A stretch of DNA of 64,000 nucleotides. It comes from an uncultured Flavobacteriales bacterium. GTDB taxonomy: Bacteria; Bacteroidota; Bacteroidia; CAIKAF01. The position numbers and the translations under genes are program-made. Within the stretch, counting starts at the first letter, position 1. Every line of letters starts with the position of its first letter. Shown here piece by piece: positions 29,730 through 60,720 of the stretch. A model generated the notes under the pieces. That model saw only the letters and a list, made by a program, of their open reading frames with translations, searched no databases and had not been told where the DNA came from. Where the stretch lies: assembly GCA_903825395.1 (NCBI GenBank), contig CAIKAF010000010.1, positions 16,700 to 80,699 of the forward strand, given 5' to 3'.

Positions 29730-29749
29730 TTACAAAGAACGAAGAGAGT

Positions 29750-31081: not shown

Positions 31082-31086
31082 GATTC

Positions 31087-34205: not shown

Positions 34206-34224
34206 ACGACAAACAAACACCACT

Positions 34225-35091: not shown

Positions 35092-35096
35092 GGCAG

Positions 35097-37753: not shown

Positions 37754-37782
37754 TTTTTGAGTGTGGTTAAGGCTTGACTGCC

Positions 37783-37920: not shown

Positions 37921-37939
37921 CCGGCTTCAATGCCACTGT

Positions 37940-38767
37940 TTATTTCGCTTCTTGTGCCAAGCGCAAGCCACCCAAAATGATTTCCGACATGGTTTTTCCG
38001 GCGGTTTCGGCCGCATTTAAAACGTCTTGCAATACTACCTTGCGTATTCGGCCCGGCACTCCCAAATCGGTGATGGCAGAAAAACCGGAACACCCTATTC
38101 CCATGTGCCGAGCAGCCAACACTTCGGGTACTGTAGACATGCCCACGGCGTCTGCGCCAATGGTTCGTATCCATCGGTATTCTGCCGGTGTTTCCAGAGC
38201 TGGGCCCTTCAGGGCAGCATACACTCCCTCATGCATTTTTGTGTTTAAGTGTTGGGCCGCCTGTCTGAAATATCCGGCCCAAGTAGCATCATAGGAATCG
38301 TGCATGTCTGGAAACCTGGGGCCCAATTGCTCAATATTGGGTCCCGACAAGGGGGAGTCTCCCAGCAAATTCAAATGGTCGGTAATCATCATCACTTCGC
38401 CCACTTCCATATCTGGATTCACTCCGCCTGCGGCGTTGGTCACCACCAAATGGGTTATCCCCAACATTCCCATCACCCGAATTGGGAATACCACCTGAGC
38501 CAACGAATAGCCTTCATAGTAATGAAAGCGCCCTTTCATTCCCAACACCTTAAACCCTTGGATTGTTCCCGCATGCAATTCGCCGGCATGGCTTTGAACT
38601 GTACTTGTTGGAAAATGGGGTATTGCAGAATAGGGAATTCGTTGGGCGTCTTTCATTTCTTTCATCAGTTGGCCCAAACCGGTTCCTAGAACCAAGCCAA
38701 TTTCGGGCTGAAATCCTTGCAATTCCTTCTTAAGAAAGTTTGCGGCTTCGTTCAATTCTGTCCACAT
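37940..38767 (-). CDS. purine nucleoside phosphorylase (PNP/MTAP family)
   Basis: 275 aa. The GTGLGQL, HFPTSTVQSHAGEL and AVGMSTVPEV blocks are typical of PNP-I. Confidence 0.75.
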   Translation of the reverse strand: MWTELNEAANFLKKELQGFQPEIGLVLGTGLGQLMKEMKDAQRIPYSAIPHFPTSTVQSHAGELHAGTIQGFKVLGMKGRFHYYEGYSLAQVVFPIRVMGMLGITHLVVTNAAGGVNPDMEVGEVMMITDHLNLLGDSPLSGPNIEQLGPRFPDMHDSYDATWAGYFRQAAQHLNTKMHEGVYAALKGPALETPAEYRWIRTIGADAVGMSTVPEVLAARHMGIGCSGFSAITDLGVPGRIRKVVLQDVLNAAETAGKTMSEIILGGLRLAQEAK

Positions 38768-39713: not shown

Positions 39714-39830
39714 GCTTCAAAGGTAGGGGTTGTAGGGGAGGTTTGAAAGGGGAGCACGTATTGGATTTGGAATTTTAGGTTGTCCCCTCGTTTCCAATAC
39801 ATTCTATTACGAATCCCCCCCAAGTCTCAA

Positions 39831-44436: not shown

Positions 44437-44586
44437 TCGGGCGGCAGCCGGGCTTTCAGGGGTAGTCTGCCCTTGCCGAAAGGCGGGCCCAGCGGGCTTG
44501 CGGGGGCTCCTAAAGTCGCCTCCGCGCCGCGCGGGCCCGGCTTCGGCAACGGGCAGAGCTACCCTCTTCAATCCCTGCCGCGGGCC
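44437..44586 (+). repeat. GC-rich dispersed element, copy C
   Basis: gggcggcagccgggctttcaggggtagtc...gcgggcccagcgggcttgcgggggctcctaaagtcgcctccgcgccgcgcgggcccggc...caatccctgccgcgggcc. Overlaps the last ~6 codons of menD. Confidence 0.8.
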
Positions 44587-46220
44587 ACCTCATTCCATGA
44601 CGCCGCTCGCCGTGCTTGATAGGTGTTCCATGCCGCCGTATTTTCCCGCGCATCGGTTTGCAGTTCAATGACTCCCGTGCGAATTCCATCCCAAATTTTT
44701 AGGCAATCTGCCAACTCCTGAACGCATCCACAACAGGCATACCGAAGCCCAAACCGCTGGGCAAACCAGGCAAAGGTGTCGGTTCGGGCAGCCACAAAAT
44801 GCCGTTCTACATCAGCAGATGCCGCGGGAGGCCCCGGCAGATTTCTAAATATTTGACCCCCAAAATTATTGAGGATCACTACCAATACATTGGTTGGGAA
44901 AGGCTGGCTCAGCAGGGCATTGTTGTCGTAGTTCATGGCCAAATCGCCAATCAAAACCACATGTTGGCGCAGGGGGTCGGCCAAAGCCTGTCCCACTGCA
45001 GTAGATAAGGTGCCGTCAATTCCACTCAAACCTCTGTTGCACCACAGTTCAATTCCCTCAGGCAGCATAGTTTGAAGCGCATCTACATAGCGTACACTCA
45101 TGCTGTTTGCCACATGCATTACCGAGTCGGCCTGCAGTTGCTTCAATATGAAGGCAACCGCGGAAACATCCGACCACGTTTCATCCCATTCTTCAATGTC
45201 GGCCATTGGCAAAACCATGGGCTCAAGGGGTTGGGGTAAGGAGTTGAAAAACGCCGCCACCGAACCCATCCAAAACGGTTGCTGTGGTAAAAATCGATAT
45301 CCCGGCTGTTCAAACAAATCCACATGCAAGGTCTTCTGACCGGGGAACCGAGAAAAGAAGGACTCCCATCGCCGTGGAACCATAGAACCTCCCACTGAAA
45401 CAAGCACGTGGGGAAGACCTTCCTCAGTTGGACGGCTCCACAACCAAAATGGGAAATCGCTGCGCGACGAAAACGACCACAAGTGCGAGGACACATCCCC
45501 CCAAAACGCCCCACCTTTGGCAATAAATTCTCGGATAAAAGGCTGCAGTTCCAGCGCAGATTTTCGATCCATATGGCCGGCCAAAATGGCTATTCTGGGT
45601 CGAGCCGGCACATTCAACTCGGCCAAAGAACGAATGCCTTGGCCAAGATCAATCGCTGGCCCCTCTTGAGTTAAGACCAAAGGTTCAGAGCCCGGATGCA
45701 CCGTACTTCCATCGTCTGCCTCATACAAGGGCTCTTCAAACCGAATGTTCAGGTGTACCGGCCCGGGTTTCCCTTGGCACAACACATCCCAGGTTTGATC
45801 CGGATGGCCGGGATCTAGATTTGAAACCAGAGTCCGACCTTTAATAAATCCCTGAAAAAAAGATTCCTGCCATAGGGTTTGCCCCTCATGTGCAGGCACG
45901 TACCGCGAAGGCCTGTCGGCAGTAATGACCACCAATCCAACTCCCTGATGATAGGCCTCGGCTATTGCTGGGCCATAATTAATTCCAGCCGAACCGCTGC
46001 TGCAAATTAAGCCTACCGGGCGCTGCCATTGCCGGGCAAGCCCAAGGGCAATAAACCCCGCTGAACGCTCATCGGGATGAACAACCATCCGAACACCGGG
46101 CAAGGATTCTAAGGCCAGAATTAAAGGCGCAGAACGAGAACCTGGCGAAACCACAAAATCGCGCAACCCCTTTTCAAAAAGAGCCTGAATCCAAAACCGG
46201 GCCAGTGCTGCTGCGTTCAT
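44568..46220 (-). CDS. menD: 2-succinyl-5-enolpyruvyl-6-hydroxy-3-cyclohexene-1-carboxylate synthase (ThDP enzyme, menaquinone pathway)
   Basis: N-terminus FVVSPGSRSAPL...HPDERSAGFIALG...GPAIAEAY typical of MenD. ThDP-binding GDLA...N motif. 550 aa. Confidence 0.8.
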   Translation of the reverse strand: MNAAALARFWIQALFEKGLRDFVVSPGSRSAPLILALESLPGVRMVVHPDERSAGFIALGLARQWQRPVGLICSSGSAGINYGPAIAEAYHQGVGLVVITADRPSRYVPAHEGQTLWQESFFQGFIKGRTLVSNLDPGHPDQTWDVLCQGKPGPVHLNIRFEEPLYEADDGSTVHPGSEPLVLTQEGPAIDLGQGIRSLAELNVPARPRIAILAGHMDRKSALELQPFIREFIAKGGAFWGDVSSHLWSFSSRSDFPFWLWSRPTEEGLPHVLVSVGGSMVPRRWESFFSRFPGQKTLHVDLFEQPGYRFLPQQPFWMGSVAAFFNSLPQPLEPMVLPMADIEEWDETWSDVSAVAFILKQLQADSVMHVANSMSVRYVDALQTMLPEGIELWCNRGLSGIDGTLSTAVGQALADPLRQHVVLIGDLAMNYDNNALLSQPFPTNVLVVILNNFGGQIFRNLPGPPAASADVERHFVAARTDTFAWFAQRFGLRYACCGCVQELADCLKIWDGIRTGVIELQTDARENTAAWNTYQARRAASWNEVARGRD

Positions 46221-46334
46221 GCAACAAAGTAACGAAAAAGAGGGCTAGATGTTCCCAAGTATAGCCCCAAGGCCCCGGAATGAAGGGACACAACTATCGC
46301 GCAATTTCCAGTCTCAAGACCTATCTTTGCATCT

Positions 46335-49013
46335 ATGTCTGAAACGTTGTCTCCTCTTTCTCCCTTACTTCGGCTTTCGGGCCTTGAAGCCTTGGTGGCG
46401 ACCTCCACCACCAATTTTATCAACATTGGTGAACGGTGCAATGTAACAGGCTCCCGAAAGTTCCTTCGATTGATTCAAGAAAACCAGTACGACGAAGCCG
46501 TAGGAATTGCCTTAGAACAAGTTCGCGGTGGAGCTCAAATTCTGGACGTTAACATGGACGAAGGCATGCTGGACGGGAAACGAGCCATGGTGCGCTTCTT
46601 AAATCTAATTGCTGCCGAACCTGAAATTGCCCGTATTCCCATTATGATTGACAGTTCCCGCTGGGAAATCATTCATGCCGGATTAAAATGCCTGCAAGGA
46701 AAAGGCATGGTAAATTCCATTTCGCTGAAATCGGGAGAAGAAGAATTCCTATACCAAGCAGCGGAAATCCGTAAGTTTGGCGCCGCAGTGGTGGTAATGG
46801 CCTTTGATGAACAGGGACAGGCCGATACCCTTCAACGCCGAATTGATATTTGCCAACGGGCCTACAACCTGCTGGTGAAAAAGGTCGGTTTCTCTCCCAG
46901 TGATATTGTTTTTGATCCCAATATTTTCCCCGTTGCCACTGGGATTGAGGAACACAACAATTACGCCCTCGATTTCTTTGAAGCCACCCGGTGGATTAAA
47001 GCCAATCTGCCCTACGCCAAGGTTTCGGGTGGAGTTTCCAATGTCTCATTTTCTTTTCGCGGCAACGACCGCGTTCGCGAAGCCATGCACTCTGCTTTCT
47101 TATACCACGGCATACAAGCCGGCATGGATATGGGCATTGTGAACCCATCGCAATTGGAAGTGTATGACGACATTCCCGCCACCTTGCTTGAACACGTAGA
47201 AGACGTGCTGCTCAACCGCCGTCCCGATGCCACAGAACGCTTGCTCAACTTGGCCGAAGAGTTTAAAACATCCAGGCAAAAAGAGGTAACTACCGAAGCT
47301 TGGCGGGAAGGCCCAGTTCAAGAACGACTCAGCTATGCCTTGGTAAAGGGGATTGTAGATTTTATTGATGCCGACGTTGAAGAAGCACGGCAATACTACG
47401 ACCGACCCATTCAGGTCATTGAAGGACCGCTAATGGACGGCATGAATCACGTTGGAGATTTGTTTGGTGCCGGAAAAATGTTCCTCCCTCAGGTGGTTAA
47501 ATCCGCCCGAGTTATGAAAAAGGCCGTGGCTCAGCTGATTCCGTACATCGAAGCAGAAGCCCAGGGAGAAGTTCAGAAAAAAGGCCGAATCTTAATGGCT
47601 ACGGTAAAAGGAGATGTTCACGATATTGGCAAAAACATTGTGGGTGTTGTGCTGGGTTGCAACAATTACGACATCATTGACCTTGGAGTAATGGTGCCTG
47701 CCGAGAAAATTCTGGCCGAAGCCAAAGCCCAGGAGGTGGATATTATTGGCCTTAGTGGCTTAATTACTCCTAGCCTAGAAGAAATGGTATTCCTCGCCTC
47801 TGAAATGCAGCGGCAAGGGTTTACAATTCCTCTTCTAATTGGCGGAGCTACTACATCAAAAGCACACACCGCAGTGAAAATAGCTCCGGCATATACCGCA
47901 GGTCCTGTTGTACACGTTTTAGATGCCAGCCGCTCTGTTCCCGTTGCCGAGGCACTGCTTGGCGATAAAAAAGAAGGATTCCTTCAGCAATGGGAAGAAG
48001 AGTATGCCGAGGTGCGTAGCCGATTTGAGCGGCAGCAGGAAGAGAAAAATTTAATCTCCCTGCGCAGCGCCCGCGCCAATGCCGCTCGGTCTACCGCACT
48101 TCTGCCGCCAGCCCCAGCTCCGGCTCAATTGGGCCTGCAACACCTTAAAAATTACCCCCTGGAAAAACTAATTCCATACATCGATTGGACACCTTTTTTC
48201 CAAACCTGGGAACTGGCGGGTCGTTTTCCGGCCATTCTGGAAGATACCGTTGTGGGAGAACAAGCCCGAGAGCTATTTGCCGATGCCCAATTTATGCTGA
48301 ACCAATTGGTGCAAGAGGGTTGGTTAACAGCCAATGCCAGTTTTGGACTTTTCCCCGCCCGGCGCGAGGGCGATAGCGTGGTTGTGTATTCCGACGAAAC
48401 TCGAAAGCAGGAAATCAGCCGATTCCATTTTTTACGGCAGCAAAACCTAAAACAAGCCGGGCAACCAAATTACTGCCTAGCCGATTTCATCTCAGAAGAT
48501 GCCCCCGATTACATCGGCGCCTTCGCCGTCACCACTGGAATCGGCATTGAAAGCCATTTGCAGCGCTTTGAAGCCGACCACGACGACTACCGTTCCATTC
48601 TTTTAAAGGCCCTGGCCGACCGATTGGCAGAGGCGTTTGCTGAACACCTGCATGCCCGTATTCGAAGAGAAATCTGGGGCTATGCCCCAAATGAAAATTT
48701 AGACAACGAAGCGCTAATTAAAGAAAAATACCAAGGCATACGCCCGGCACCCGGATACCCCGCTTGCCCCGACCATACTGAAAAACCCAGGCTGTTTGAG
48801 TTGCTGAATGCCAGCGCAGAATCCGGAATGCACCTGACCGAATCTATGGCCATGATGCCCGCCAGCAGTGTCTGCGGCTGGTATTTTGCTCATCCCGATT
48901 CAAGGTATTTTGGTTTAGGCAAAATAACGGAAGAACAGGGCCGAGACCTTGCCGAGCGAAAGGGAATTCCCTGGGAAGACCTGCGGCGCTGGCTTAGCCC
49001 AAACCTGGCCTAA
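46335..49013 (+). CDS. metH: methionine synthase core: pterin-binding + B12-cap + B12-binding + AdoMet-activation domains (lacks Hcy-binding domain)
   Basis: The pterin-binding block [15 protein letters not shown]...[11 protein letters not shown]12-binding [10 protein letters not shown] and GLSGL, and the C-terminal reactivation domain. 892 aa, i.e. MetH minus the N-terminal ~340 aa. Confidence 0.85.
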
Positions 49014-49098
49014 ATTACCCATGTATTACCCTTTTGGTTCAGCTCCAACCCAACTTGGAGCAATGTTGTACCTTTAATGGAATCAACCTGATCTTTGT

Positions 49099-50382
49099 AT
49101 GACACGTCTTTTGCTTTCTCTTGGCCTGATTTTATTCTCCAAGGCCTTTTCCCAGAACATACATTTGGGCAGCAATACGCCCGCAGACCCTTCCTCTGTT
49201 GTAGAAATTTCCTCTACAACCGGAGGCTTTTTAGTGCCTCGAATGACCACCGTCCAGCGCAATGCCATTCAAAATCCCGCCACGGCACTTCAAATTTTCA
49301 ATACCGATACCGATTGCCTGGAAATGTATTATTCCGGTGGAGGCTGGCGTAGCATTCATTGCGATTGCCAAGCCTTTCCCAACGCCGTTTTTGCCGTTCC
49401 CAACGGCTACATAAATCAGGCCGCATCATTTAGCGCCCCTCCCAATATGACCTACAGCTGGAGTTTTCAAAACGGCACGCCTTCCAGCTCTGTATTGCAA
49501 AACCCACAACCCAGCTGGTCAAGCCCCGGAACCTACGCTGTTTCACTGTCCTTGACCGACAGCGCCGGCTGCTCCTCTTCGCATACCGATTCCATTACGG
49601 TTATCAACTGTGCCCCAGCCACCGGCGGAACCATTACCACCTCTGGCCCCTGGACCATTCATACTTTTACCGGCAATGGAACGTTTAACCCCGGCTGCAG
49701 CCGCACCATAGAATACTTGATTGTGGCTGGTGGCGGTGGCGGCGGAGATGGGAATGCCGGTGGCGGTGGGGGCGGAGCCGGTGGTTTTGTCGAAGGCTCT
49801 GTTCAGCTTTCTCCAGGAAATTACTCCATCGTAGTAGGAAGCGGAGGCGCCGGAAGCACGGTTCAAGATGGTGTTGGTCAATCTGGTAACAATTCCAGCT
49901 TTAACAACATTATAGCCTTTGGCGGCGGCCGCGGTGGTGGATATGTAAGCCCCAACGGCGCCAATGGAGGAAGTGGCGGTGGGGGCAGTGGCCCATCTGG
50001 AAGCGGACAAGGCGGGTCTTCAACCCAAACCTCTCCACAAGGCGGAAATGGGTATGGATTTTCGGGTGCGCCCTATGCCGGCGGCGACGGCGGTGGCGGC
50101 GGTGGAGCCGGTGGGGCAGCCAATAGCAGAAATGGAGGGCCCGGCCGCAACAGTTCTATATCTGGCAACACGGTAACCTATGCCGGAGGTGGCGGCGGAG
50201 CCCGCTACCTAGGTCAAGCGGGCTTAGGTGGTTCCGGAGGTGGCGGAAATGGAGGATATTACCCCGGAAATGGAAACGGACAAAATGGCCAAGCCAACAC
50301 CGGGGGCGGAGGCGGAGGTTCCGGCGATGGCCCCATCGGGGGCAATGGCGGCTCTGGTATTGTTATTCTTCGGTACCAATAA
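49099..50382 (+). CDS. secreted protein of paralogous family: shared N-terminal module + PKD-like domain + long glycine-rich C-terminal domain
   Basis: Signal peptide. PADPSSVVEISSTTGGFLVPRMTTVQRNAIQNPATALQIFNTDTDCLE, then TYSWSF...GTYAVSL, then ~230 aa of G-runs ending GSGIVILRY. Confidence 0.6.
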   Translation: MTRLLLSLGLILFSKAFSQNIHLGSNTPADPSSVVEISSTTGGFLVPRMTTVQRNAIQNPATALQIFNTDTDCLEMYYSGGGWRSIHCDCQAFPNAVFAVPNGYINQAASFSAPPNMTYSWSFQNGTPSSSVLQNPQPSWSSPGTYAVSLSLTDSAGCSSSHTDSITVINCAPATGGTITTSGPWTIHTFTGNGTFNPGCSRTIEYLIVAGGGGGGDGNAGGGGGGAGGFVEGSVQLSPGNYSIVVGSGGAGSTVQDGVGQSGNNSSFNNIIAFGGGRGGGYVSPNGANGGSGGGGSGPSGSGQGGSSTQTSPQGGNGYGFSGAPYAGGDGGGGGGAGGAANSRNGGPGRNSSISGNTVTYAGGGGGARYLGQAGLGGSGGGGNGGYYPGNGNGQNGQANTGGGGGGSGDGPIGGNGGSGIVILRYQ

Positions 50383-50418
50383 ATTCCCAAGCTCTAAAAC
50401 CAACCAAACCTCTCTCCC

Positions 50419-51990
50419 ATGAAACAATTGCTCGGCCTTATCTTGCTGATTTTCTCGGCCAATCTTAGCGCCCAAGGGGTAAAAATCAACCATGGAACAC
50501 CAAGTCCGGCAGACAGTTCGGCCATTTTGGAATTGGAATCGACCCAAAAAGGATTTCTGCTGCCTAGGCTCACTACAGCACAGCGAAATGCCATCGCTTC
50601 TCCTGCAGTAGGATTGCAAATTTACAACACTTCAACCCGCTGCGTAGAAACCTTTTTTCCTGTAGGTTGGAGGCCAACAGGATGTCAATGTACCGCGTTC
50701 CCCAATGCTGGATTCACCCTTCAACCCGCTTTCCCATCGGCGGGCTTCCCAATCCAGTTTATGGCCAACGATTCCTCCAATGCCCTTTCCTGGACTTTCC
50801 AAAACGGAAGCCCCGCTAACGATACCGTCGGAGCCCCCATTGTAATATTTTCCAACCCAGATACCGTTTCGGTAGTGCTTCGTGCTACCGATTCTCAAGG
50901 CTGCCAAGATTCAACAACTCAAACCATTGTTATTCAAAATTGCCCCCTGAATACCCCAAACCCGGCCTTTACCGCTTCACCCGCAAGTCCGGGAACAAAT
51001 CAAGCGGTAACGTTTAACCCAAGTAGCCTAGTGGGGGTGTCTCACAGTTGGTCTTTTGCCAGTGGTAACCCAGGGAGTTCTTCGGCTACAAATCCAACCT
51101 CCACCTGGTCAAGCGCAGGAACTTATTCTGTCATTCATCAAGTTACCGATTCTAGCACCGGCTGCGTTCAAGCCGATACCTTGGCTCTGGTTGTAAGCTC
51201 CTGCATTACAGGAGGCAATGCCAATTTTATTTTCACGGGTAACCTTCAGCTTTGGACAGCTCCGGCTGGGGTATGTACGATTCAAGTAGAAGGCTGGGGC
51301 GCCCGCGGAGGAGATGGCGGTGGCTATGGGGCCTACGTGGTAGGAACCTTTTCCGTTACCCCTGGGCAGCAATATAAAATTTTAGTTGGCCGGAAAGGAA
51401 ACAATGGCAACGGCGGTGGCGGCGGTGGCGGGACATGGTTTACCGATGCCAACAACAATCCATTGTTGGTAGCTGGGGGCGGAGGCGGTAAAGGCTATGG
51501 CAATTCCAACCTGCCTTCCTCAGTAAATGGCGGCGCTTGCGGAGGCTCAGGCTGCTCGGGAACCCAAGGCTCATGCGGAAGCCCTGGCACCGGCGGAAGC
51601 AACGGCGCCGGGGGACTTGGGGCCACCTGCACTCAAAATGGAACCGGAGGCGGTGGCGGCGCCGGAACACTAACCGGCGGGGGAACAGCAAACGGCTGTT
51701 CCTATTCCCAAAGCACAGGCGGAGCCGCATTTGTGAATGGGGGTGCCGGGGGCTTAGGGGGCTGTGGAGTGGCAGGAGGATTCGGCGGCGGTGGTGGTGG
51801 CGGTTGCAACGGCGGTGGAGGTGGCGGCGGAGGAGGATATTCTGGCGGCGGCGGCGGAAATCCCTGGTGCAACAACGGAGGAATTGGAGGCCATGGCGGC
51901 GGCGGTGGCTGCTACAACACCGGAACCAACACATCTTTAACGGTGGGCGGCAACCTCAACGACGACGGCAGGTTGTACATCACCTGGTAA
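50419..51990 (+). CDS. secreted protein of the same paralogous family (N-terminal module + PKD-like repeats + glycine-rich C-terminal domain)
   Basis: PSPADSSAILELESTQKGFLLPRLTTAQRNAIASPAVGLQIYNTSTRCVE. Two PKD-like blocks (ALSWTFQNGSP..., SHSWSFASGNP...). A Gly-rich tail ending GRLYITW. Confidence 0.6.
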   Translation: MKQLLGLILLIFSANLSAQGVKINHGTPSPADSSAILELESTQKGFLLPRLTTAQRNAIASPAVGLQIYNTSTRCVETFFPVGWRPTGCQCTAFPNAGFTLQPAFPSAGFPIQFMANDSSNALSWTFQNGSPANDTVGAPIVIFSNPDTVSVVLRATDSQGCQDSTTQTIVIQNCPLNTPNPAFTASPASPGTNQAVTFNPSSLVGVSHSWSFASGNPGSSSATNPTSTWSSAGTYSVIHQVTDSSTGCVQADTLALVVSSCITGGNANFIFTGNLQLWTAPAGVCTIQVEGWGARGGDGGGYGAYVVGTFSVTPGQQYKILVGRKGNNGNGGGGGGGTWFTDANNNPLLVAGGGGGKGYGNSNLPSSVNGGACGGSGCSGTQGSCGSPGTGGSNGAGGLGATCTQNGTGGGGGAGTLTGGGTANGCSYSQSTGGAAFVNGGAGGLGGCGVAGGFGGGGGGGCNGGGGGGGGGYSGGGGGNPWCNNGGIGGHGGGGGCYNTGTNTSLTVGGNLNDDGRLYITW

Positions 51991-52059
51991 TCAATGCCCC
52001 AAAACCCTTCCAAAACCTTTCGCCCCATGCCCTGTTTTCTTATGTAGATTCCAAGGCCG

Positions 52060-52494
52060 ATGAAATTGTATGATGTTTCCTTGTTTCCTCCTGCTCTGCT
52101 TCGAGAAATCAATCAACACTATGGAGCACCCGTCTCGTTAAAAGAACGCCTATTCGGTCCCCCAACCGGCAGCCCAGGCATGGATTGGATCTCCGGCCCT
52201 CCCGAGATTTCTGACATCATCACCCCTTTAGGCCCACGCATCCGATTGAACGCAGAACGCCGCCCAAAAGGCTGGTTGCTGCACATCAACGGCAGCCTGA
52301 GGCGATTTTATCTGGTAGGCTTTGAACCGGGAGAACTCCAACATTGGACGTTTGAACCTATGCCCGGAGAACGATTTATGCACGTATCCATTTGCACCTC
52401 TGGGGTAGATTGGACCTTCCGCCTACGCGATTCCGCGCAAAAAAATGCATTGAATCGGTTTTTTCAGGCCTTGGACTCTCCCAACCACTCATAA
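52060..52494 (+). CDS. hypothetical protein
   Basis: 144-aa ORF with no recognisable motif. Its 3' end overlaps the purD 3' end on the opposite strand. Confidence 0.3.
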   Translation: MKLYDVSLFPPALLREINQHYGAPVSLKERLFGPPTGSPGMDWISGPPEISDIITPLGPRIRLNAERRPKGWLLHINGSLRRFYLVGFEPGELQHWTFEPMPGERFMHVSICTSGVDWTFRLRDSAQKNALNRFFQALDSPNHS

Positions 52495-53741
52495 CCAATA
52501 TCTCTGCGGTAAAATCCGGCCGACCAAGGATTCTCTGATAAATATCCATACGCCACCTCTAAGGCCTCTTCCAAATCCGCTCCCAGTCCGGTAACCGCCA
52601 ATACACGGCCCCCTTGGCTCAATAAATGTTCTCCCGACCGCCGCGTTCCGGCCTGAAATACCAAGGCCCGATTTGATTCCGATAACCGCAACGGCATTCC
52701 CGTTTCATAGGTTCCCGGATATCCATTGGCACACAATACCACCGTAGCCGCCACACCCTCCTCAGATTCCAACATGTCCTCCGGCCAATTTCCACCGGCA
52801 CTTCCCTCCAACCAAGGCAGCAAATCGCTTTTAATTAAAGGCATAACCGCTTGAGTTTCCGGATCACCCATCCTGCAATTGTACTCGATCACATAGGGTT
52901 TGCCCTCTACTACCATTAATCCCACATACAAAAATCCGGTGTAGGGCTGCCCTTCTTCGGCCATACCCAGCAAGGTGGGCCTTACAATATCACGTTCTAC
53001 CTCGGCTAAAAATTCCGGACTGCTGTGCGGCCAGGGCGCCACTACGCCCATGCCTCCTGTATTCGGGCCCTGATCACCCTCACCCACACGCTTATAGTCT
53101 TTGGCCGTAGGCAAAAAAACAAAGTCCTTCCCATTGCTCAACACAAAGACCGAACATTCCTTCCCCGGCAAAAATTCCTCAATCACAACCTTTGGGGAAG
53201 CCTCACTGTGCTTCTCGGTTTTCAGCATCAAACTCAATTCGCGCTTAGCAGTATCGGCATCCGGTAAAATCAAAACGCCCTTGCCCCCCGCCAAGCCATC
53301 GGCCTTTAACACATAAGGAGGCCGAAGCGAATCAATAAACCGATAGCCTTCTACCAGCTCCTGTTTGGTAAAGGTTTTATGCTTGGCTGTTGGAATGCCA
53401 TGCCGCACCATAAACGACTTGGCAAAGTCCTTGCTCGACTCCAACATGGCCGCAGCGCGGCGGGGACCAACTACCTTTAGCGGCCCCAAATCTCTGCGTT
53501 CCCGCAAAAAATCCACAAGACCTTCTGCCAAAGGCTGCTCTGGCCCCACTACCACCAAACCAATCGCATGTGTTTTTATGGCCTTGGCTAGGGCTTCAAA
53601 ATCCAGCGGATCTATGGGCAAGGTGTTCGGGCTTCCTCCGTTCCCCGGAGCTATAAATAAAGCATCACAGTGGGGACTTTGAGCCAGTTTCCAAGCCAAG
53701 GCATTTTCTCTGCCTCCGGAACCGACAACCAGGATATTCAT
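52464..53741 (-). CDS. purD: phosphoribosylamine--glycine ligase
   Basis: [20 protein letters not shown]-terminus and an ATP-grasp core. About 425 aa. Confidence 0.85.
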   Translation of the reverse strand: MNILVVGSGGRENALAWKLAQSPHCDALFIAPGNGGSPNTLPIDPLDFEALAKAIKTHAIGLVVVGPEQPLAEGLVDFLRERRDLGPLKVVGPRRAAAMLESSKDFAKSFMVRHGIPTAKHKTFTKQELVEGYRFIDSLRPPYVLKADGLAGGKGVLILPDADTAKRELSLMLKTEKHSEASPKVVIEEFLPGKECSVFVLSNGKDFVFLPTAKDYKRVGEGDQGPNTGGMGVVAPWPHSSPEFLAEVERDIVRPTLLGMAEEGQPYTGFLYVGLMVVEGKPYVIEYNCRMGDPETQAVMPLIKSDLLPWLEGSAGGNWPEDMLESEEGVAATVVLCANGYPGTYETGMPLRLSESNRALVFQAGTRRSGEHLLSQGGRVLAVTGLGADLEEALEVAYGYLSENPWSAGFYRRDIGYEWLGESKA

Positions 53742-55315
53742 TATAAGGGTATATTTCCGTGTTTCTTTCTGGGAAGCCATTCTACCTTATTCGACAGCAT
53801 CGAATAGGCCTTCATCAATTTCTCACGCGTTTGTTCGGGCAATATTACTTCATCAATGTAGCCGCGCGCCGCTGCTTCATACGGATTAGCAAAGCGCTCG
53901 GCATACTCCTGTTCCTTTTCTTTCCATTTGGCTTGCGGATCTTCGGCCGAGGCGATTTCGGCACGAAAGATGATTTCGGCGGCGCCTTTTGCTCCCATCA
54001 CTGCAATTTCAGCTGTGGGCCAAGCATAATTCATATCTGCCCCAATGTGCTTGGAGTTCATCACATCGTAAGCCCCTCCATATGCTTTTCGCGTAATAAC
54101 TGTAATTCTTGGTACGGTGGCTTCGCTAAAGGCATAGAGCAACTTAGCCCCATGCGTAATGATTCCGTTCCATTCTTGATCGGTTCCTGGTAAAAAACCC
54201 GGAACGTCTTCCAATACCAATAAGGGAATGTTGAAAGCATCACAAAACCGAACAAAACGTGCAGCCTTGGTGCTGGATTTTATATCCAAAACTCCAGCCA
54301 AAAACGCAGGCTGATTCGCCACCACACCCAAGCATCTACCTCCTAAGCGCCCAAATCCCACCACCATGTTTTCGGCAAATTCTTTGTGCACTTCCATAAA
54401 CGAATCGGCATCCAGAATCTCCCGAATCACTTCCTTCATATCGTAGGGCTGGTTTGGATTCTCTGGCAATAAGGAATTTAAGGCCGGGCGGCTTTCATCT
54501 CCCGATTCATAGGGCAAATGCGGGGGTTTTTCTTCGCAGTTTTGAGGCAAATACGACAATAATCTGCGGATATGCCGAACGGCATCCGTTTCTGTAGTGC
54601 AGGTAAAATGCGTTACTCCGCTTTTGCTGGCATGGGTAGAAGCGCCCCCAAGCTCTTCGCTGCTTACCTCTTCATGCGTTACTGTTTTCACCACGTTCGG
54701 ACCAGTAACAAACATGTAAGAGGTATCTTCCACCATTAAAATAAAGTCGGTAATGGCCGGCGAATAAACAGCGCCTCCGGCACAAGGCCCCATAATGGCT
54801 GATATTTGAGGAATAACCCCCGAGGCCTTGGTGTTCCGGTAAAAAATATCGGCATAGCCTCCCAGCGAAACCACCCCTTCTTGGATGCGGGCTCCCCCCG
54901 AATCGTTTAATCCAATCACCGGCGCTCCGTTTTTAAGAGCCATGTCCATCAAACGGCAAATTTTTTCAGCATGGGCTTCGGCCAAAGAGCCCCCCAAAAC
55001 GGTAAAGTCTTGAGAAAACACATACACCCGTCGGCCATGAATGCTGCCATAGCCGGTCACTACACCATCTCCTAAAAACTGCTGTTTATCCAATCCAAAA
55101 TGCCGGGAGCGGTGCATCACCAACATTCCGATTTCTTCAAATGACCCTGGGTCTAAGAGCAAATCAATGCGTTCTCGAGCCGTTAATTTTCCCTTTTTAT
55201 GTTGTGCCTCCTGACGAGTTAGGCCTCCACCCAAAAGGGCTTCTGCCTGTTTGGCCTGTAGTTCGGCCACCTTTTTCGCATGTTTCATACCCAATCTGGC
55301 TTGGTTGCGCTTCAA
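53741..55315 (-). CDS. acyl-CoA carboxylase carboxyltransferase subunit (propionyl-CoA carboxylase beta / methylmalonyl-CoA carboxyltransferase family)
   Basis: [19 protein letters not shown] and two carboxyltransferase halves. 524 aa. Confidence 0.8.
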
Positions 55316-55353
55316 AAGTAACCAAACCCAACGGAATTAGCCGAAGAAAGAAG

Positions 55354-56751
55354 CTATTGCTTCATCCATTTTTTTACCCAAGTTTTTCCTTGCGCATCTT
55401 GAATCCGTACTTGGTAGATTCCGGCCGGCAATTCCTGCACATTCAGTACAAAGCCCGCACTTGAGCCAACCTTTCTAATCACCTGCCCTTGCGCATTGGT
55501 AACCGTCAATTCTGCCGTCAATCCTTGGGGCAATTCGACCTTCAGCCAATCGCTGCTTGGGTTTGGGTACACCTTCCAACTGAACGAAGCCGAGGCTTGT
55601 GTAGATAAAGGCAAACCAATAAAATCAATGTTGCCGTTGGCATCAAAGGGGTTCGACCATTGCTCGGCCGTATATACTGCCGTCCCGCTGAGGGTCCGTA
55701 AAAAGGCTATTAGGGCAGTTTTATCGGCATTGCTAAGGTTCAGGTTTTGGCCCTGGTTTTGTGGACCGGCCAGTCGTGGATCTAAATTGGTATTCCCCGG
55801 CACAGGAACAATCAGGTTGTAATGGTCAATCACCTGCATCAGCGAGGTTTTGCTGCCATCGTGCATCAATGGCCCATTCAGCTGCCCCGCAGGGTTCACC
55901 AAATCGCGCAACGAAGGCGAACGGGTGTTGCCCAAATCCAATTGTCCCGGCTGTCCACCCGCTACGGCCACAATGTTGTTGTTGCGGCTGTTGGGGTCTA
56001 TGTCAAACTCTGGGCCACGGTGGCAACCTTGGCAACCGGCACCGGCCGGCGGGGGAGTCAAAAACAGGTTTTTCCCGTTGTTCTCTTGGGCGCTGAAATT
56101 CGGAAAGGGAGCACCCAGGTTCGGCGCCTGCGCCAGGCCCACATCAAATTTCGAATCAAACGATGCAATGCTCCTTAAAAAAGTCGATAAGGCACGCTGA
56201 ATGTACATTTCTGAAATGTCAGGACTTCCAAAGGCCAACTGAAACAAGGCCGGATACTCCGGTATGGACTCCAACTTACGGATTAGAGAATCGATGCCCG
56301 GCTGTCCTCCTTGCCCCGAAAAGCCCATCTCAACCGCATCTTGAATGGGTTGACTGGTTTGGTCGTCCAAAGAGCTGGCGCGTTCATTCCAAAAAAACCG
56401 GGTTTCTGTGGCAAATCGAGCATTGATAAGGCGCATGGAGTGCCGCCCGGTAAGTCCTCCTGTATGCCCTACCGACCGTACGGCGGTATCGCCAAAGGCA
56501 AACTCCTGCTTGTGGCAAGAAGCACAAGAAATGGCATTGTTTACCGATAAGCGGGCATCATAAAACAGCACCCGACCCAGCGTTGCCCGCATATTGTCTG
56601 CGGCATTGGGCGCCGGCGCATTGTCTTTCGTAATGTAAGCCGGAACGGCAAGTCCGTAATAATTGAACAGATTGCCCAGGTCAATGCTGCCCGCTGTAAG
56701 CAGCAGCAAAAAAGCAAATCCCAAAAAAACTGAAGTCGTTTTACGCATCAT
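55354..56751 (-). CDS. di-haem cytochrome c peroxidase (CCP/MauG family) carrying a T9SS C-terminal sorting domain
   Basis: Two CxxCH motifs (CASCHKQ, CQGCHRG). The C-terminal ~80 aa (VYPNPSSDWLKVELP...GIYQVRIQDAQGKTWVKK) is T9SS-CTD-like. Confidence 0.7.
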   Translation of the reverse strand: MMRKTTSVFLGFAFLLLLTAGSIDLGNLFNYYGLAVPAYITKDNAPAPNAADNMRATLGRVLFYDARLSVNNAISCASCHKQEFAFGDTAVRSVGHTGGLTGRHSMRLINARFATETRFFWNERASSLDDQTSQPIQDAVEMGFSGQGGQPGIDSLIRKLESIPEYPALFQLAFGSPDISEMYIQRALSTFLRSIASFDSKFDVGLAQAPNLGAPFPNFSAQENNGKNLFLTPPPAGAGCQGCHRGPEFDIDPNSRNNNIVAVAGGQPGQLDLGNTRSPSLRDLVNPAGQLNGPLMHDGSKTSLMQVIDHYNLIVPVPGNTNLDPRLAGPQNQGQNLNLSNADKTALIAFLRTLSGTAVYTAEQWSNPFDANGNIDFIGLPLSTQASASFSWKVYPNPSSDWLKVELPQGLTAELTVTNAQGQVIRKVGSSAGFVLNVQELPAGIYQVRIQDAQGKTWVKKWMKQ

Positions 56752-56875
56752 AGGGTTGGCAGGTTAGTGAGGTCGATTTCCATCTAGGTCGCAAAATATT
56801 GATTTTTCCTTTCTTATCCCCCTCCATTTTTTAGGGTGAATCATTGATTTGGATAGGTTCTTTTCTGTTTTTTCT

Positions 56876-57025
56876 TGGGCGGCTGCGGGCTTTCGTGGGT
56901 AGTCCGCGGTGGGCGGAAGTCTGGCCCAGCGGGCTTGCGGGGGCTCCCAAGGTCGCCTCCGCGCCACGCGGGCCAGGCTCCGCCCACCTTGCGGGCAACC
57001 CTACTCAATCCCTGCCGCAGGGCCC
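56876..57025 (+). repeat. GC-rich dispersed element, copy D
   Basis: gggcggctgcgggctttcgtgggtagtccgcggtgggcggaagtctggcccagcgggcttgcgggggctcccaaggtcgcctccgcgccacgcgggccaggctcc...caatccctgccgcagggcc. Confidence 0.8.
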
Positions 57026-57114
57026 CCTCCTACCTAGGCTCTCCATATTGATTTTTCATCCACAACAGCGAATTTCAGCTTAGCCTACTCAGCCAACCCG
57101 CCTATGGCCTATCT

Positions 57115-57360
57115 TTGGGTGTGATTTTCATTGGCAACCTTCCTTATGCCTTCACTGAACAGGAGCTTAAAGACCTGTTTAGTCCGTTTGGCGAGGCCCA
57201 ATCGGTTCAGTTGATTCGGGACCGAATTTCGGGCCGAAGCCGCGGATTTGGGTTTGTAGACCTGAGCAATTCACAGCAAGAAATTGCTGCCATCGAGGCC
57301 CTGCAGGGCCTCGAATTGGAAGGAAGAACCATTCGAATAAGCAAGAAGCACCATGAATAG
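57115..57360 (+). CDS. RRM-type RNA-binding protein
   Basis: RNP-2 (IFIGNLPY) and RNP-1 (RGFGFVDL) motifs. 81 aa. Confidence 0.7.
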   Translation: MGVIFIGNLPYAFTEQELKDLFSPFGEAQSVQLIRDRISGRSRGFGFVDLSNSQQEIAAIEALQGLELEGRTIRISKKHHE

Positions 57361-58381
57361 AGAACAACGCATTGAGGCCCTGCGCCTAGCCATGAAAACC
57401 CGGGTGGTCGTTTTAGACGGTGCCATGGGAACCATGATTCAACGGCATAATCTGCAAGAAGAAGATTACCGCGGACAGCGCTTTGCCGATTGGCCCCACC
57501 CCGTAAAAGGCAACAATGAATTGCTTAGCCTTACTCGGCCAGATGTTATTCAGGGTATCCACCAAGCGTATTTTGAGGCCGGCGCTGATATTGCTGAAAC
57601 CAATACGTTCGGAGCCAACCGAATTTCTCAGGCCGACTACCACATGGAAGCCCTGGCCGAAGAAATGAATCTGGCTTCGGTAGCCTGTGCTCGAGCCGCT
57701 GCCGATGCCTGCATGGAAAAAGAACCCGGACGGTTGTGCTGGGTAGCCGGAGCGATTGGACCCACCAATAAAACCGCGTCCTTGTCACCCGACGTCAACG
57801 ATCCCGGATTCCGAGCCATTGACTTCGACGAACTGGTAGAGGCATACCTAGAACAGGCTCGAGCCCTTTGGTCTGCCGGAGCCGACGCCCTTCTGGTTGA
57901 AACCATTTTCGACACCTTAAACGCCAAGGCCGCTCTGTACGCCATTCAACAGCTGCGCGAGGAAACCGGAGCCGCCATTCCCATTATGGTGAGTGGAACC
58001 ATCACCGACGCCTCGGGAAGAACCCTTAGCGGACAAACCGTAGAGGCCTTTATGATTTCATTGCTGCATGCCGACCTTCTGAGCATCGGCCTGAACTGCG
58101 CCCTAGGCGCCAAAGACATGGCCCCCTACATTCAGGAATTGGCAAAAAAATCTCCGGTCATGGTAACGGCCTACCCCAATGCCGGCCTTCCCAATGCTTT
58201 TGGAGCCTACGATCAAACTCCCGATGAAATGGCCGATTTGGTGGCTGAATTTATGAACAACCGCTGGATTAATTTGATTGGTGGCTGCTGTGGCAGTACC
58301 CCCGACCACATTGCCGCTATTGCCCGTGTGGCAAAACAAGCTCAGCCTAGACCTCTACCCGAGTTAAATAAAGAGTCGTAA
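57353..58381 (+). CDS. homocysteine S-methyltransferase domain protein (stand-alone Hcy-binding module of cobalamin-dependent methionine synthase)
   Basis: [11 protein letters not shown], the [10 protein letters not shown] barrel motifs, and the Zn-ligand Cys pair [10 protein letters not shown]. 342 aa, matching the MetH N-terminal module missing from 46335-49013. Confidence 0.8.
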
Positions 58382-58427: not shown

Positions 58428-58573
58428 CCCGCGGCAGGGATTGAACCGGGTAGCACGCCAACGGGGCGGAGCCTGGCCCGCGTGGTGCGGAGGCGACTTT
58501 AGGAGCCACCGCAAGCCCGCTGGGCCAGCCTTCCGCCCTGTGCGGACTACCGGTGAAAGCCCGCAGCCGCCCC
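58428..58573 (-). repeat. GC-rich dispersed element, copy E (reverse orientation)
   Basis: cccgcggcagggattgaaccgggtagc...ggcgcggaggcgactttaggagccaccgcaagcccgctgggccagcc...ggtgaaagcccgcagccgccccc. Confidence 0.8.
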
Positions 58574-58592
58574 CATAAAAAACCAAATCCAT

Positions 58593-60431
58593 TTAGCCCT
58601 GAACCCGCCCCGTTTCTCCCTGGGCGAATTTCAAAAATGCCTGATTTACAAAGGCGTAGCCCCCCGGCGTAGGGTAATTTCCGCTGAAGTACCAATCGCC
58701 CGTATGCTCAGGACAGGCCGAGTGCAGCCCCTGCAACGACTGAAACACCAGCTGCACTTGAGCCTGTATGCCCGCCGGACTAAGCTGTTCTGCCATTTTA
58801 TCGGCCAACTGCGCATCGCTGAACCGGGCATACAATTCTGCCACCCAGTTTTTTTCTCCGTCTGTTCTCTGCTCTCTAGCGCGTAAGATATTGGCCTCGG
58901 TTTGCTTTAATTCCGAGTTCAAACCGGCTTCGGCGAGCAAGGCCAGCAGCGCCCGAAAGGCCGCCAAGTCTTCCAGCCGAGCCATATCAATGCCATAGCA
59001 ATCGGGGTACTTGATGATGGGTGCCGAGCTGACTACCACGATGCGCCGCGGTTGCAAGCGATCCAGCATTTTCAGGATGCTTTCGCGCAGGGTGGTGCCC
59101 CGCACAATGCTGTCGTCCACCACCACCAGGGTGTCTTGGCCAGGCCGCACAGAGCCGTAGGTGATGTCGTACACGTGCTGCACCAGGTCGTCCCGGTGCC
59201 GGTCGTCGGTAATGAAGGTGCGCAATTTAGCGTCCTTCACCGCCACCTTTTCTACCCGCACCTTGCGGCGCAGCAAGGCTAAAATCTCTTCTTCCGTGGC
59301 CGGACAATGTTCCATGATCTGCCGGGCGGTTCGCGCCTCTTGCTCGGCCTCCAAGCCCTTTACCAATCCATAAAACGCCAGTTCTGCCGTGTTGGGAATA
59401 AAAGAAAATACAGCCTCTTCAAGCTGTCCATTCAGGGCCTGCAACACCGGCTCGGCCAGCTGCTCGCCCAAGGCTTTGCGTTCGGTATATACTGAGGCGT
59501 CGGTGCCCCGAGAAAAATAAATGCGCTCAAACGAACAGGCTAGGGTGGGCTGAGCCTCGAGCACCTGCACCGTTTCCGCCTGCCCCTGAGCGGAAATCAA
59601 CAGCGCACTACCGGGCTTTAGCTCTTGAATGTCTTGCACATCGGCATGAAACACAGTTTGCAGGACCGGCCGCTCAGAAGCCACCGCAATCAGTTCTTCG
59701 TTTTCGTACCAAAAGCAAGGGCGAATGCCCCGCGGGTCTCGAATGGCAAAGGCATGTCCATCGCCTGTAAAACCGCCAATGGCATAGCCTCCGTCTAGTT
59801 TTTGAAAGGTGTTGCGGAGCACCTGCCCCAAATCGGGCGGCCCCACCGGACGGCCTTGATTTTCATGTTGCCCAAGGGCGCGGTCTAAAAAATGCCCCAT
59901 GCGCTCCATCACCGTTACGGTATCGGCCGTTTGCGTAGGGTGTTGACCTAGTTCTACCAACTGCTGAAACAACTCGGCCGTATTGGTCAAATTGAAATTC
60001 CCGGCAAGGCAGAGCATTTTTTCTTTCCATGGACTGTCCCGTAAAAATGGGTGGCATGAATCAATGCCGTTCGCTCCATACGTGCCATAACGCACATGGC
60101 CCAAATAAATATCGCCTTCAAATCGGTTGGCCTGAGGTTCGCGCTGCCGCTGCTCCTCAATTTGCCGAATGACATGCAAAATGGGCTGCGCCTGCACCGA
60201 GCGCTCCCGAAGAATGGGGGGCTTGCCGGGCAAGGTATCAACCGACAGGCAGGCCAAACCGGCACCGTCTTGCCCGCGGTTGTGCATTTTTTCCAGCAAC
60301 AGGTACATGTGGCGCAAGGCCTGTCCATAGGGCAAAGAAGAGGGCTTTCCGGCTTGCCGCTTCAACCGGATTAAGGCCAATCCACATTCGTGTTTTAATG
60401 GGTCGCTCATGCATGGGGTTTCCAGGCACAA
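58593..60431 (-). CDS. purF: amidophosphoribosyltransferase (class-II glutamine amidotransferase + PRTase)
   Basis: N-terminal nucleophile context HECGLALIRL, Ntn-GATase domain, PRPP-binding VVVDDSIVRGTT. 612 aa long form. The true start is possibly the MSDPLKHEC Met at 60410. Confidence 0.8.
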   Translation of the reverse strand: MCLETPCMSDPLKHECGLALIRLKRQAGKPSSLPYGQALRHMYLLLEKMHNRGQDGAGLACLSVDTLPGKPPILRERSVQAQPILHVIRQIEEQRQREPQANRFEGDIYLGHVRYGTYGANGIDSCHPFLRDSPWKEKMLCLAGNFNLTNTAELFQQLVELGQHPTQTADTVTVMERMGHFLDRALGQHENQGRPVGPPDLGQVLRNTFQKLDGGYAIGGFTGDGHAFAIRDPRGIRPCFWYENEELIAVASERPVLQTVFHADVQDIQELKPGSALLISAQGQAETVQVLEAQPTLACSFERIYFSRGTDASVYTERKALGEQLAEPVLQALNGQLEEAVFSFIPNTAELAFYGLVKGLEAEQEARTARQIMEHCPATEEEILALLRRKVRVEKVAVKDAKLRTFITDDRHRDDLVQHVYDITYGSVRPGQDTLVVVDDSIVRGTTLRESILKMLDRLQPRRIVVVSSAPIIKYPDCYGIDMARLEDLAAFRALLALLAEAGLNSELKQTEANILRAREQRTDGEKNWVAELYARFSDAQLADKMAEQLSPAGIQAQVQLVFQSLQGLHSACPEHTGDWYFSGNYPTPGGYAFVNQAFLKFAQGETGRVQG

Positions 60432-60484
60432 AGGTAAAAACCCATGTAAGATTTAAGGCGGTTTTGGGAAATAAATTGTTGGGG

Positions 60485-60720
60485 CAGACCTACGTGTCTG
60501 CCCCAAACGAGTCGAGGCCGCCAGGCCAGACCTACGTGTCTGCCCCAAACGAGTCGGGGCCGTCAGGGCACACCTAGGTGTCTGCCCCAAACGAGTCGAG
60601 GCCGCCAGGCCAGACCTACGTGTCTGCCCCAAACATGTCGAGGCCGCCGGGGCACACCTACGTGTCTGCCCCAAACCAAACGGGTGCCGTAGGCATACAC
60701 GGATTGGAGGGGCATATAAG
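60485..60720. repeat. tandem repeat, ~4.5 copies of a 40-44-bp unit with palindromic core cagacctacgtgtctg
   Basis: Units at 60485, 60527, 60571, 60611 and 60655 (partial), e.g. cagacctacgtgtctgccccaaacgagtcgaggccgccaggc. Lies between the fabD 3' end and the purF 5' end. Confidence 0.85.

Follow-up and report, generated by a model that had tools for sequence, protein, structure and literature searches.

Split methionine synthase with unlinked halves and a conserved RRM-Hcy gene cassette in an uncultured Flavobacteriales bacterium

We analyzed a 64-kb stretch of DNA (64,000 nt; hereafter, the window) from an uncultured Flavobacteriales bacterium, which encodes the cobalamin-dependent methionine synthase MetH in two separate pieces. 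The larger gene, MetH-C, and the smaller one, Hcy, together hold all five modules of single-chain MetH in the same order. These modules are not on one polypeptide but on two open reading frames (ORFs), with 8339 nt between the stop of MetH-C and the start of Hcy. Judged by its domain content, the locus is a genuine MetH that is broken exactly at the linker between the homocysteine-binding and pterin-binding domains. We consider it probable that this is an ordinary split MetH that assembles in trans, with genes that are unlinked in this lineage, and with expression of Hcy coupled to that of a small gene for an RRM protein. Split MetH and its assembly in trans are already known and are not new, since two-part and three-part forms and an unlinked Hcy module are in the literature. 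What is new here is a conserved, invertible RRM-Hcy cassette, together with unlinked halves that have matched boxes close to their starts.

Two genes encode the modules of one MetH

The two genes are as follows.

46335-49013, + strand: MetH-C, 892 amino acids; pterin-binding barrel, B12 cap, B12-binding domain and S-adenosylmethionine (AdoMet) activation domain
57353-58381, + strand: Hcy, 342 amino acids; stand-alone homocysteine-binding (S-methyl_trans) barrel of MetH

A previous reading of this DNA, made from the letters alone (the sequence-only reading), described the 892-amino-acid protein as a MetH that opens with its pterin-binding domain. The Pfam domains agree: Pterin_bind at residues 32-270, B12-binding_2 at 328-401, B12-binding at 417-510 and Met_synt_B12 at 608-877 (PF00809, PF02607, PF02310 and PF02965, the last covered at profile positions 1-273 of 273). 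So does the alignment to positions 341-1229 of the NCBIfam MetH profile NF007024, which has 1234 positions. The score on that profile, 1490.7, is just below the cut-off of 1497, and TIGR02082 is passed (1210.8; cut-off 1010.85). The B12 ligand motif DVHDIG, of the DxHxxG type, is at residue 427, the activation-domain motif RPAPGYP is at residue 803, and residues 355-1260 of human methionine synthase (9SSP) are covered.

The 342-amino-acid protein is a single S-methyl_trans domain (PF02574, E = 4e-97) that matches NF007024 positions 5-342 with 517 bits and covers residues 23-347 of the human enzyme. Its Cys3 zinc site is intact (Cys249, in GLNCALG, Cys312 and Cys313), and both zinc-ligand strings are the same as those of human MTR in the alignment. 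The proposal that this ORF is the missing Hcy barrel, complete with its zinc site, is therefore upheld. A search of the whole window for a second Hcy domain, MetH-C or RRM copy found none, and neither metE nor metF was found by Pfam annotation of the main window ORFs.

PF02574 also includes the stand-alone enzymes MmuM and BHMT, the gene is unlinked from MetH-C, and a free Hcy module in roseobacters serves a shared corrinoid system (PMC12478193). On these grounds the 342-amino-acid protein might act on its own as a homocysteine methyltransferase with a different methyl donor (S-methylmethionine or AdoMet, the MmuM donors; betaine, the BHMT donor; or another corrinoid protein), with MetH-C in a different role or inactive. 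However, the 517 bits on the MetH profile extend over the whole N-terminal domain, whereas the protein scores only 111.4 bits on the MmuM model NF007020 (cut-off 215) and 120.5 bits on the BHMT model NF005718 (cut-off 338). It groups with MetH N-terminal domains, and is about 57-64% identical to the Hcy region of MetH loci in GTDB genomes, among them fused loci of Pseudomonas and Dyadobacter. No other corrinoid protein or methyltransferase gene appears among the Pfam-annotated window ORFs, and MetH-C is itself strongly constrained. We therefore regard an independent methyltransferase as very unlikely.

The constraint on the two halves is alike. The ratio of nonsynonymous to synonymous substitution rates (dN/dS) is 0.062 for MetH-C relative to its counterpart in relative L089, and 0.062 for Hcy relative to that in relative L081, with dN of 0.110 and 0.096 and about 13% protein divergence. 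This bears on the suggestion that the pieces are decaying relics and that methionine comes from MetE or a different synthase, the gene for which lies beyond the window. Just 64 kb of the genome are in view, and many bacteria have both metE and metH, which leaves some room for such a scenario. Nonetheless, both ORFs are intact and retain all catalytic motifs, both genes are conserved in multiple lineages, and the low dN/dS values are not those expected of relics. Hence, decay seems to us extremely improbable.

Hcy belongs to a conserved overlapping cassette

The start of Hcy lies within the end of a small upstream gene.

57121-57360, + strand: RRM_1 gene, 79 amino acids from GTG 57121 (81 amino acids if from TTG 57115); tail-less; RNP2 IFIGNL, RNP1 RGFGFV
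57353-57360, + strand: RRM/Hcy overlap, 8 nt, ATGAATAG; the Hcy ATG is within the end of the RRM ORF

GTG 57121 is more likely than TTG 57115 to be the real RRM start because of the alignment with relatives. The protein matches RRM_1 (PF00076) along the full profile (positions 1-70 of 70; E = 1.2e-22), and both IFIGNL and RGFGFV are conserved through the clade. The overlap between the Hcy ORF and the 3ʹ end of the RRM gene had been pointed out in the sequence-only reading, and it is indeed present as the 8 nt listed above. In relatives, it reads ATGCATAG (8 nt) or ATGGAGCGTAA (11 nt), and the frame relation is unchanged.

An RRM gene overlaps the Hcy start in all close Hcy relatives with available upstream DNA (73-99% identity). 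In addition, a search with a junction-specific degenerate pattern, consisting of the RNP1 motif, 150-180 nt, and then a DG[AG]MGT motif, yielded six metagenome contigs, and in all six the RRM gene leads into Hcy. About five species-level lineages carry the cassette, with cassette DNA identity of 63-88% between groups, and its surroundings vary. It sits between MauG and Plug genes in L081 and L097; behind MauG and a repeat copy, with a different downstream flank, in L104 and L105; between MauG with a repeat copy and Plug, but inverted, in L101 and L102; between MauG with a repeat copy and a second repeat copy followed by a purF-like gene in the window and L106; and between sulfatase and UbiA-COX genes in L083-L088. 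L106 (contig OAPA01000239.1) belongs to the window species.

L101 and L102 are two separate Joint Genome Institute (JGI) metagenome contigs that are 98.6% identical across the cassette, and they display an in-place inversion. Their order is MauG (-), repeat copy, Hcy and RRM in reversed orientation, and Plug (-), as compared with MauG (-), RRM and Hcy in forward orientation, and Plug (-) in L081. The breakpoints, in L081 coordinates, are at 9603-9739 and 10984-11154; therefore, the inverted unit takes in the last ~30 nt before the RRM start. The cassette has thus been kept through relocation, in-place inversion and turnover of its flanks. Going by these comparisons, the RRM-Hcy pair is a conserved overlapping cassette rather than a chance neighborhood, a point that is absent from the sequence-only reading.

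The halves are unlinked in the sampled clade members

How common is this arrangement? We scanned GTDB species representatives with the Hcy protein and obtained at least 80 loci at 56-64% identity, 79 of which were informative. Among the matches listed, the MetH-C part directly follows Hcy in 79 of 79 loci; the two parts are fused in 41 and separated by a stop codon in 38, and in all 38 of the latter MetH-C is the next MetH-related gene downstream, with a gap of 30-1979 nt. These 38 loci are in line with the earlier statement that the two genes are adjacent in many Bacteroidetes. The census returned relatives at no more than 64% identity, and close relatives were reached via a protein database and contig look-ups. 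The best 120 matches of each protein search are nearly all stand-alone, at ~335-345 amino acids for Hcy or ~890 amino acids for MetH-C, and the named entries among them are Bacteroidota.

Synteny in relatives at 72-87% identity shows the halves to be unlinked and in different neighborhoods. Hcy is located with MauG and a Plug receptor gene (L081/L097), or with sulfatase genes and a UbiA-COX cluster (L083-L088). MetH-C is found with menD and PKD genes (L089), with HSP70/epimerase and OmpA genes (L091), or behind an alpha/beta-hydrolase gene (L093). No partner half was found within 10 kb in any of these relatives (L081/L097, L083-L088, L089, L091 and L093). In L095, a 66% relative, the halves are likewise unlinked and an identifiable RRM gene is absent. 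In L096, by contrast, the genes are adjacent, with 40 nt between the Hcy stop and the MetH-C start. A bootstrapped neighbor-joining tree with Kimura distances places this adjacent-split L096 as sister to the cassette clade (bootstrap 66% for a position outside the clade, 24% for one nested inside).

In the window, six genes separate the halves: two PKD/glycine-rich genes, an ORF of 144 amino acids, purD, a carboxyltransferase gene and a gene for a MauG-like di-heme type IX secretion system (T9SS) protein. The sequence-only reading was right that a purine gene is among them, but menD, to which it also referred, is upstream of MetH-C and not between the halves. Strand-aware synteny resolves the region into block A (menD, MetH-C, PKD, PKD) and block B (the 144-amino-acid ORF, purD, carboxyltransferase, MauG, RRM, Hcy), which stand side by side in the window lineage only.

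51991-52059, no strand: junction of block A and block B; specific to the window lineage, from synteny

In L081/L097, which are 86% relatives, the left neighbor of block B is adh_short, a gene that in the window is at 21449-22237, ~30 kb off. Since the relatives are unlinked, since blocks A and B are joined in the window lineage only, and since block B has adh_short as its left neighbor elsewhere, the comparison indicates that the 8.3-kb proximity is a derived, lineage-specific coincidence and no remnant of adjacency.

GC-rich hairpin repeats do not account for the separation

The cassette is flanked by copies of a GC-rich repeat.

56868-57021, + strand: GC-rich hairpin repeat in the MauG/RRM spacer; absent there in L081, present at the equivalent place in L104/L105
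58428-58581, - strand: GC-rich hairpin repeat, inverted copy at the Hcy/purF-like synteny breakpoint
44439-44591, + strand: GC-rich hairpin repeat downstream of menD, at the left edge of block A; weak copy at the same place in L089
11311-11456, 39836-39981, 62993-63136 and 63271-63416: other copies of the GC-rich hairpin repeat; weak copy at 14816-14941

That the RRM/Hcy pair is bracketed by inverted GC-rich repeats had been recognized before, and the two copies (154 nt) are 84% complementary. The family is ~145 nt long with 75-89% identity and at least seven copies in 64 kb (~1 per 8 kb). All of them are intergenic, and both orientations occur. The RNA of the 58428-58581 copy forms a single long hairpin (-101 kcal/mol, z = -3.7). 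Relatives have the repeat at partly different sites (L081 14311-14465, L101 4219-4361). The family looks like a REP/MITE-like element (repetitive extragenic palindrome or miniature inverted-repeat transposable element) of the window lineage.

The sequence-only reading saw the separation as consistent with a repeat-mediated rearrangement. In such a model, recent recombination between the flanking inverted copies would have parted an adjacent Hcy/MetH-C pair. Several observations lend themselves to this model. Inverted copies do flank the cassette, and one is at the Hcy/purF-like breakpoint; between another pair, at 39.8 and 44.5 kb, lies a segment with a T9SS gene that is inverted relative to L089; the cassette itself is inverted in place in L101/L102; and the adjacent-split L096 falls just outside the clade. 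However, every clade member that was sampled has its halves unlinked, and their contexts are unrelated. No GC-rich copies were found at the cassette flanks of L081, an 86% relative, L101/L102 have a single copy beside the inverted cassette, and no copy was detected at the junction of blocks A and B (51991-52059). Moreover, a family with one copy in every ~8 kb of the window is dispersed. As an origin of the separation, the model is by these comparisons already contradicted, and we consider it highly improbable. Local rearrangement around the cassette, as judged from synteny, is nonetheless real and frequent.

Several GC-rich repeat copies fall on synteny breakpoints. An exact 13-nt direct repeat, ATATTGATTTTTC, occurs at 56796-56808 and 57045-57057, on either side of the repeat copy at 56.9 kb and at distances of 66 nt and 23 nt from its core. 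We considered it as a target-site duplication but, since it does not directly abut the element, made no use of it; the pair could be an insertion remnant or chance.

Matched boxes precede MetH-C and the RRM-Hcy cassette

The same 10-mer, CCTATCTTTG, is found at the starts of MetH-C and the RRM gene.

46320-46329, + strand: CCTATCTTTG box (TAnnTTTG), 5 nt before the MetH-C ATG; conserved in L089/L090
57108-57117, + strand: CCTATCTTTG box (TAnnTTTG), 3 nt before the RRM GTG; within the unit inverted in L101/L102

All cassette lineages keep the RRM-side box, in the form TATCTTTG or TACCTTTG. TAnnTTTG is 3-5 nt ahead of the start in all four unlinked MetH-C genes and in every cassette; for MetH-C of L091 and L093, it is 4-5 nt ahead of a plausible start. 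The adjacent-type MetH-C of L096 has no such box before its start. In the window, 4 of 43 genes have an exact TAnnTTTG within 12 nt of an in-frame start. The other two are the gene for LpxK, with a box at 39718-39725 (-), 4 nt before the ATG, and a GT25 gene, with a box at 24709-24716 (+), 5 nt before an internal in-frame ATG that is 45 nt into the listed ORF.

TAnnTTTG matches the Bacteroidota -7 promoter element, a consensus from the Bacteroides literature, and is thus a putative promoter here. If TAnnTTTG is a promoter, both transcripts would be leaderless or nearly so, and there may be a minority class of leaderless mRNAs in this organism. A leaderless state fits the absence of a riboswitch: Rfam models for SAM, SAM-SAH and cobalamin riboswitches gave no hits at the gathering threshold anywhere in the window, and in the two leaders permissive Rfam scans (E <= 5) turned up nothing of relevance. 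Scans for sigma-70 promoters and intrinsic terminators were at chance level, and these models do not suit Bacteroidota promoters.

We propose the following model. MetH-C and the Hcy barrel would be made as separate polypeptides, each half being transcribed on its own from a putative start-proximal TAnnTTTG promoter without riboswitch control. By analogy with MetH structures and with the genetics of other split MetH enzymes, the Hcy barrel would dock non-covalently on the pterin barrel and restore the N-terminal two-barrel unit, and the B12 domain would then carry methyl from methyl-tetrahydrofolate over to homocysteine, just as it does in fused MetH. Initiation based on Shine-Dalgarno sequences is weak in Bacteroidota. 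Because Hcy has no start region of its own and overlaps the RRM gene by 8-11 nt, it is probably translated by termination-reinitiation, coupled to translation of the RRM ORF. The RRM-Hcy cassette may go back to the ancestor of a small clade of uncultured Bacteroidota, in which it stayed intact. Most economically, a relocated, promoterless Hcy gene would have become established behind an RRM gene that is expressed and would have captured its signals, with the RRM protein having no part in catalysis.

Does the RRM protein have a role in methionine synthesis?

An alternative to this passive association is that the RRM protein is a dedicated partner, either as a post-transcriptional regulator that would match the output of the halves by binding to the mRNA of MetH-C, to its own or to both, or as an RNA-binding accessory of the enzyme. 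The retention of the cassette in about five species-level lineages despite relocation and inversion is what such a role would lead one to expect, as are the intact RNP1 and RNP2 motifs, the identical CCTATCTTTG at the starts of both halves, and the dN/dS of 0.18-0.29 for the RRM ORF, which indicates purifying selection. Furthermore, the RRM proteins linked to Hcy form a tail-less subgroup. The best NCBIfam match of the window RRM is NF058537 (Rbp_regulator, cut-off 100 bits), and it falls below the cut-off (89.8 bits), as do P0248 (76.2) and the L083 RRM (74.2), whereas the generic stand-alone RRMs P0250 (114.2) and P0264 (119.4) pass. The R/G-rich tail of the nearest stand-alone relatives is missing from the Hcy-linked RRM. 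One such stand-alone relative, on the long contig L099, is not followed by an Hcy gene; contig L100 ends directly after its RRM gene and is uninformative on this point.

Other observations argue against a dedicated partner. The linkage may be structural, given that overlapping genes are not easily parted, and the RRM gene evolves at ~2.7 times the nonsynonymous rate of Hcy. Fused and adjacent-split MetH do without an RRM protein, with an RRM gene within 10 kb in 0 of 80 GTDB MetH loci among the matches listed. The papers on Rbp proteins that were read make no connection to methionine or B12, and leaderless mRNAs, if that is what they are, leave little 5ʹ untranslated region for binding. Hence, we think a dedicated partnership unlikely. 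Its more specific form, in which the tail-less RRM protein, made from the same leaderless mRNA as Hcy, would be a dedicated post-transcriptional coordinator that balances the unlinked halves via the MetH-C transcript, its own transcript or both, is somewhat more doubtful still.

The reading that we prefer, of an ordinary split MetH with Hcy riding on the expression of an RRM gene, has points that weigh against it. First, TAnnTTTG is not enriched in the window as a whole (39 found, 38.7 expected), and the promoter and leaderless part of the model appeals to a consensus from the Bacteroides literature. Second, the bootstrap for a single origin of the cassette is only 66%, which is moderate support. 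Third, the difficulty of parting overlapping genes makes conservation of the pair a weaker sign of a functional link than it looks. Fourth, the view is limited to 64 kb, and metE or a second, full-length metH may be present elsewhere in the genome. Finally, purifying selection on the RRM gene, together with its divergence from canonical Rbp proteins, may leave room for a specific role that hitch-hiking does not predict.

Other features of the window

T9SS sorting domains in window proteins, and database matches that stem almost wholly from metagenome assemblies and MAGs, point to an uncultured Bacteroidota lineage. MetH-C is followed by genes for two PKD and glycine-rich (Gly_rich_2) proteins, at 49099-50382 and 50419-51990. 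They hold the same place 3ʹ of MetH-C in L089, where one also matches PTL_trimer, and their GGN-rich coding repeats show as a repeat family of their own (D2) in the window repeat search. Upstream, beyond menD and ~1.9 kb from MetH-C, is a gene for a TonB-dependent receptor (42040-44427, +) with no counterpart at that place in L089. The best models for its Plug region are heme and vitamin B12 (BtuB) receptors, with scores far under their cut-offs. A single inversion between the repeats at 44.5 kb and 58.5 kb would predict this receptor to be orthologous to the Plug receptor beside Hcy in L081; the two do not match, and this scenario was rejected.

The 144-amino-acid ORF of block B (52060-52494) has no family in Pfam or NCBIfam. 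It shares 31 nt with the 3ʹ end of purD, to which it is convergent, and is kept at 65-70% in all relatives with block B. The gene at 58593-60431 (-) encodes a class-II glutamine amidotransferase of 612 amino acids. Among NCBIfam models purF fits it best, but with a score far under the cut-off (136.8 bits; cut-off 350 bits). This purF-like gene adjoins Hcy in the window and the MetH-C block in L089.

Protein identity to L097 is strongly mosaic. Across window positions 8772-14598 (L097 14612-20897), the Lhr helicase, DUF6268, 153-amino-acid and 166-amino-acid ORFs are 95-99% identical, as compared with 55% for menD, 65% for the 144-amino-acid ORF, 72% for purD and 86-87% for Hcy/MetH-C elsewhere. 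Such a pattern suggests that the 8.8-14.6-kb segment was recently recombined or transferred between lineages.

The window has another intergenic repeat family, unrelated to the GC-rich one. It is ~150-200 nt long, contains the motif TTTGCGGTAAAAAA and is found at 7478-8753, 27366-28006 and 37765-37942, in tandem and dispersed copies that include inverted pairs 10 kb apart. Tandem arrays are present at 4411-4677 (~55-nt units) and 60482-60691 (five 42-nt units), with a short palindrome, GGGCAGACCTACGTGTCTGCCC, in each unit. Lastly, 28179-37753 (+) is an apparent reductive pyrimidine-catabolism cluster, with genes for an aldehyde dehydrogenase, a class-III aminotransferase, a cytosine/purine-type permease, a dihydropyrimidinase-like amidohydrolase, a beta-ureidopropionase-like CN-hydrolase and PreT/PreA-like dihydropyrimidine dehydrogenase subunits.

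Implications

For annotation, an 892-amino-acid "methionine synthase" that lacks the Hcy barrel is neither a pseudogene nor a marker of auxotrophy, and metabolic reconstruction in this clade should look genome-wide for the missing module, behind a small RRM gene. For evolution, the loci offer a natural series from fused to adjacent split to unlinked split, the last with what would be promoters of their own. A relocated enzyme module that overlaps an unrelated small gene also informs how fission products stay expressed in Bacteroidota. The interest for RNA biology depends on a specific role for the RRM protein; were it a coordinator, both this task for a bacterial RRM protein and this answer to the problem of subunit stoichiometry after gene fission would be new.

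Comparison with known systems

The Bacteroidota RRM-1 proteins (RbpA/B/C of Bacteroides thetaiotaomicron; NF058537) share with the window RRM a single RRM_1 domain of ~80 amino acids with RNP1 and RNP2. The window-type proteins differ in scoring 74-90 bits, under the cut-off of 100, in having no R/G-rich tail, and in always being overlapped by a downstream Hcy gene. rbpB is itself in an operon with unrelated metabolic genes, BT1884-1887 (PMC13370968). MmuM and BHMT have PF02574 and Zn-Cys3 chemistry in common with the window Hcy protein, which is far under their cut-offs and far nearer to MetH N-terminal domains.

The closest systems are other forms of split MetH. In Phaeobacter, MetH has three parts with an unlinked pterin gene, and function in trans was shown genetically (PMC5764234); in roseobacters, a free, unlinked Hcy module, MtgE, has been described (PMC12478193). 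These MtgCDE or three-part systems, of Phaeobacter inhibens and Ruegeria pomeroyi (PMC5764234, PMC12478193), likewise have a free Hcy module away from its partners that acts in trans, as genetically proven there. However, their pterin and corrinoid modules are separate too, activation is RamA-like, and the authors saw no simple derivation from classical MetH. In the window, the Hcy barrel alone is encoded apart, and each of the two pieces shares ~60% identity with classical fused MetH. The two-part split MetH of Bacteroidota and of Sphingomonas koreensis, for which there is genetic evidence (PMC7857596) and which is a form recognized by GapMind, has the same break at the Hcy/pterin linker, the same products of ~340 and ~890 amino acids, and all catalytic motifs. 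In those loci the genes are neighbors (gap 30-1979 nt among the matches listed), whereas in the window clade the halves are unlinked, each has its own start-proximal TAnnTTTG box, and Hcy overlaps the end of an RRM gene. Relative to classical single-chain MetH (E. coli; human MTR, PDB 9SSP, 4CCZ), the modules and their order are shared, and the window chain is broken at the first inter-domain linker.

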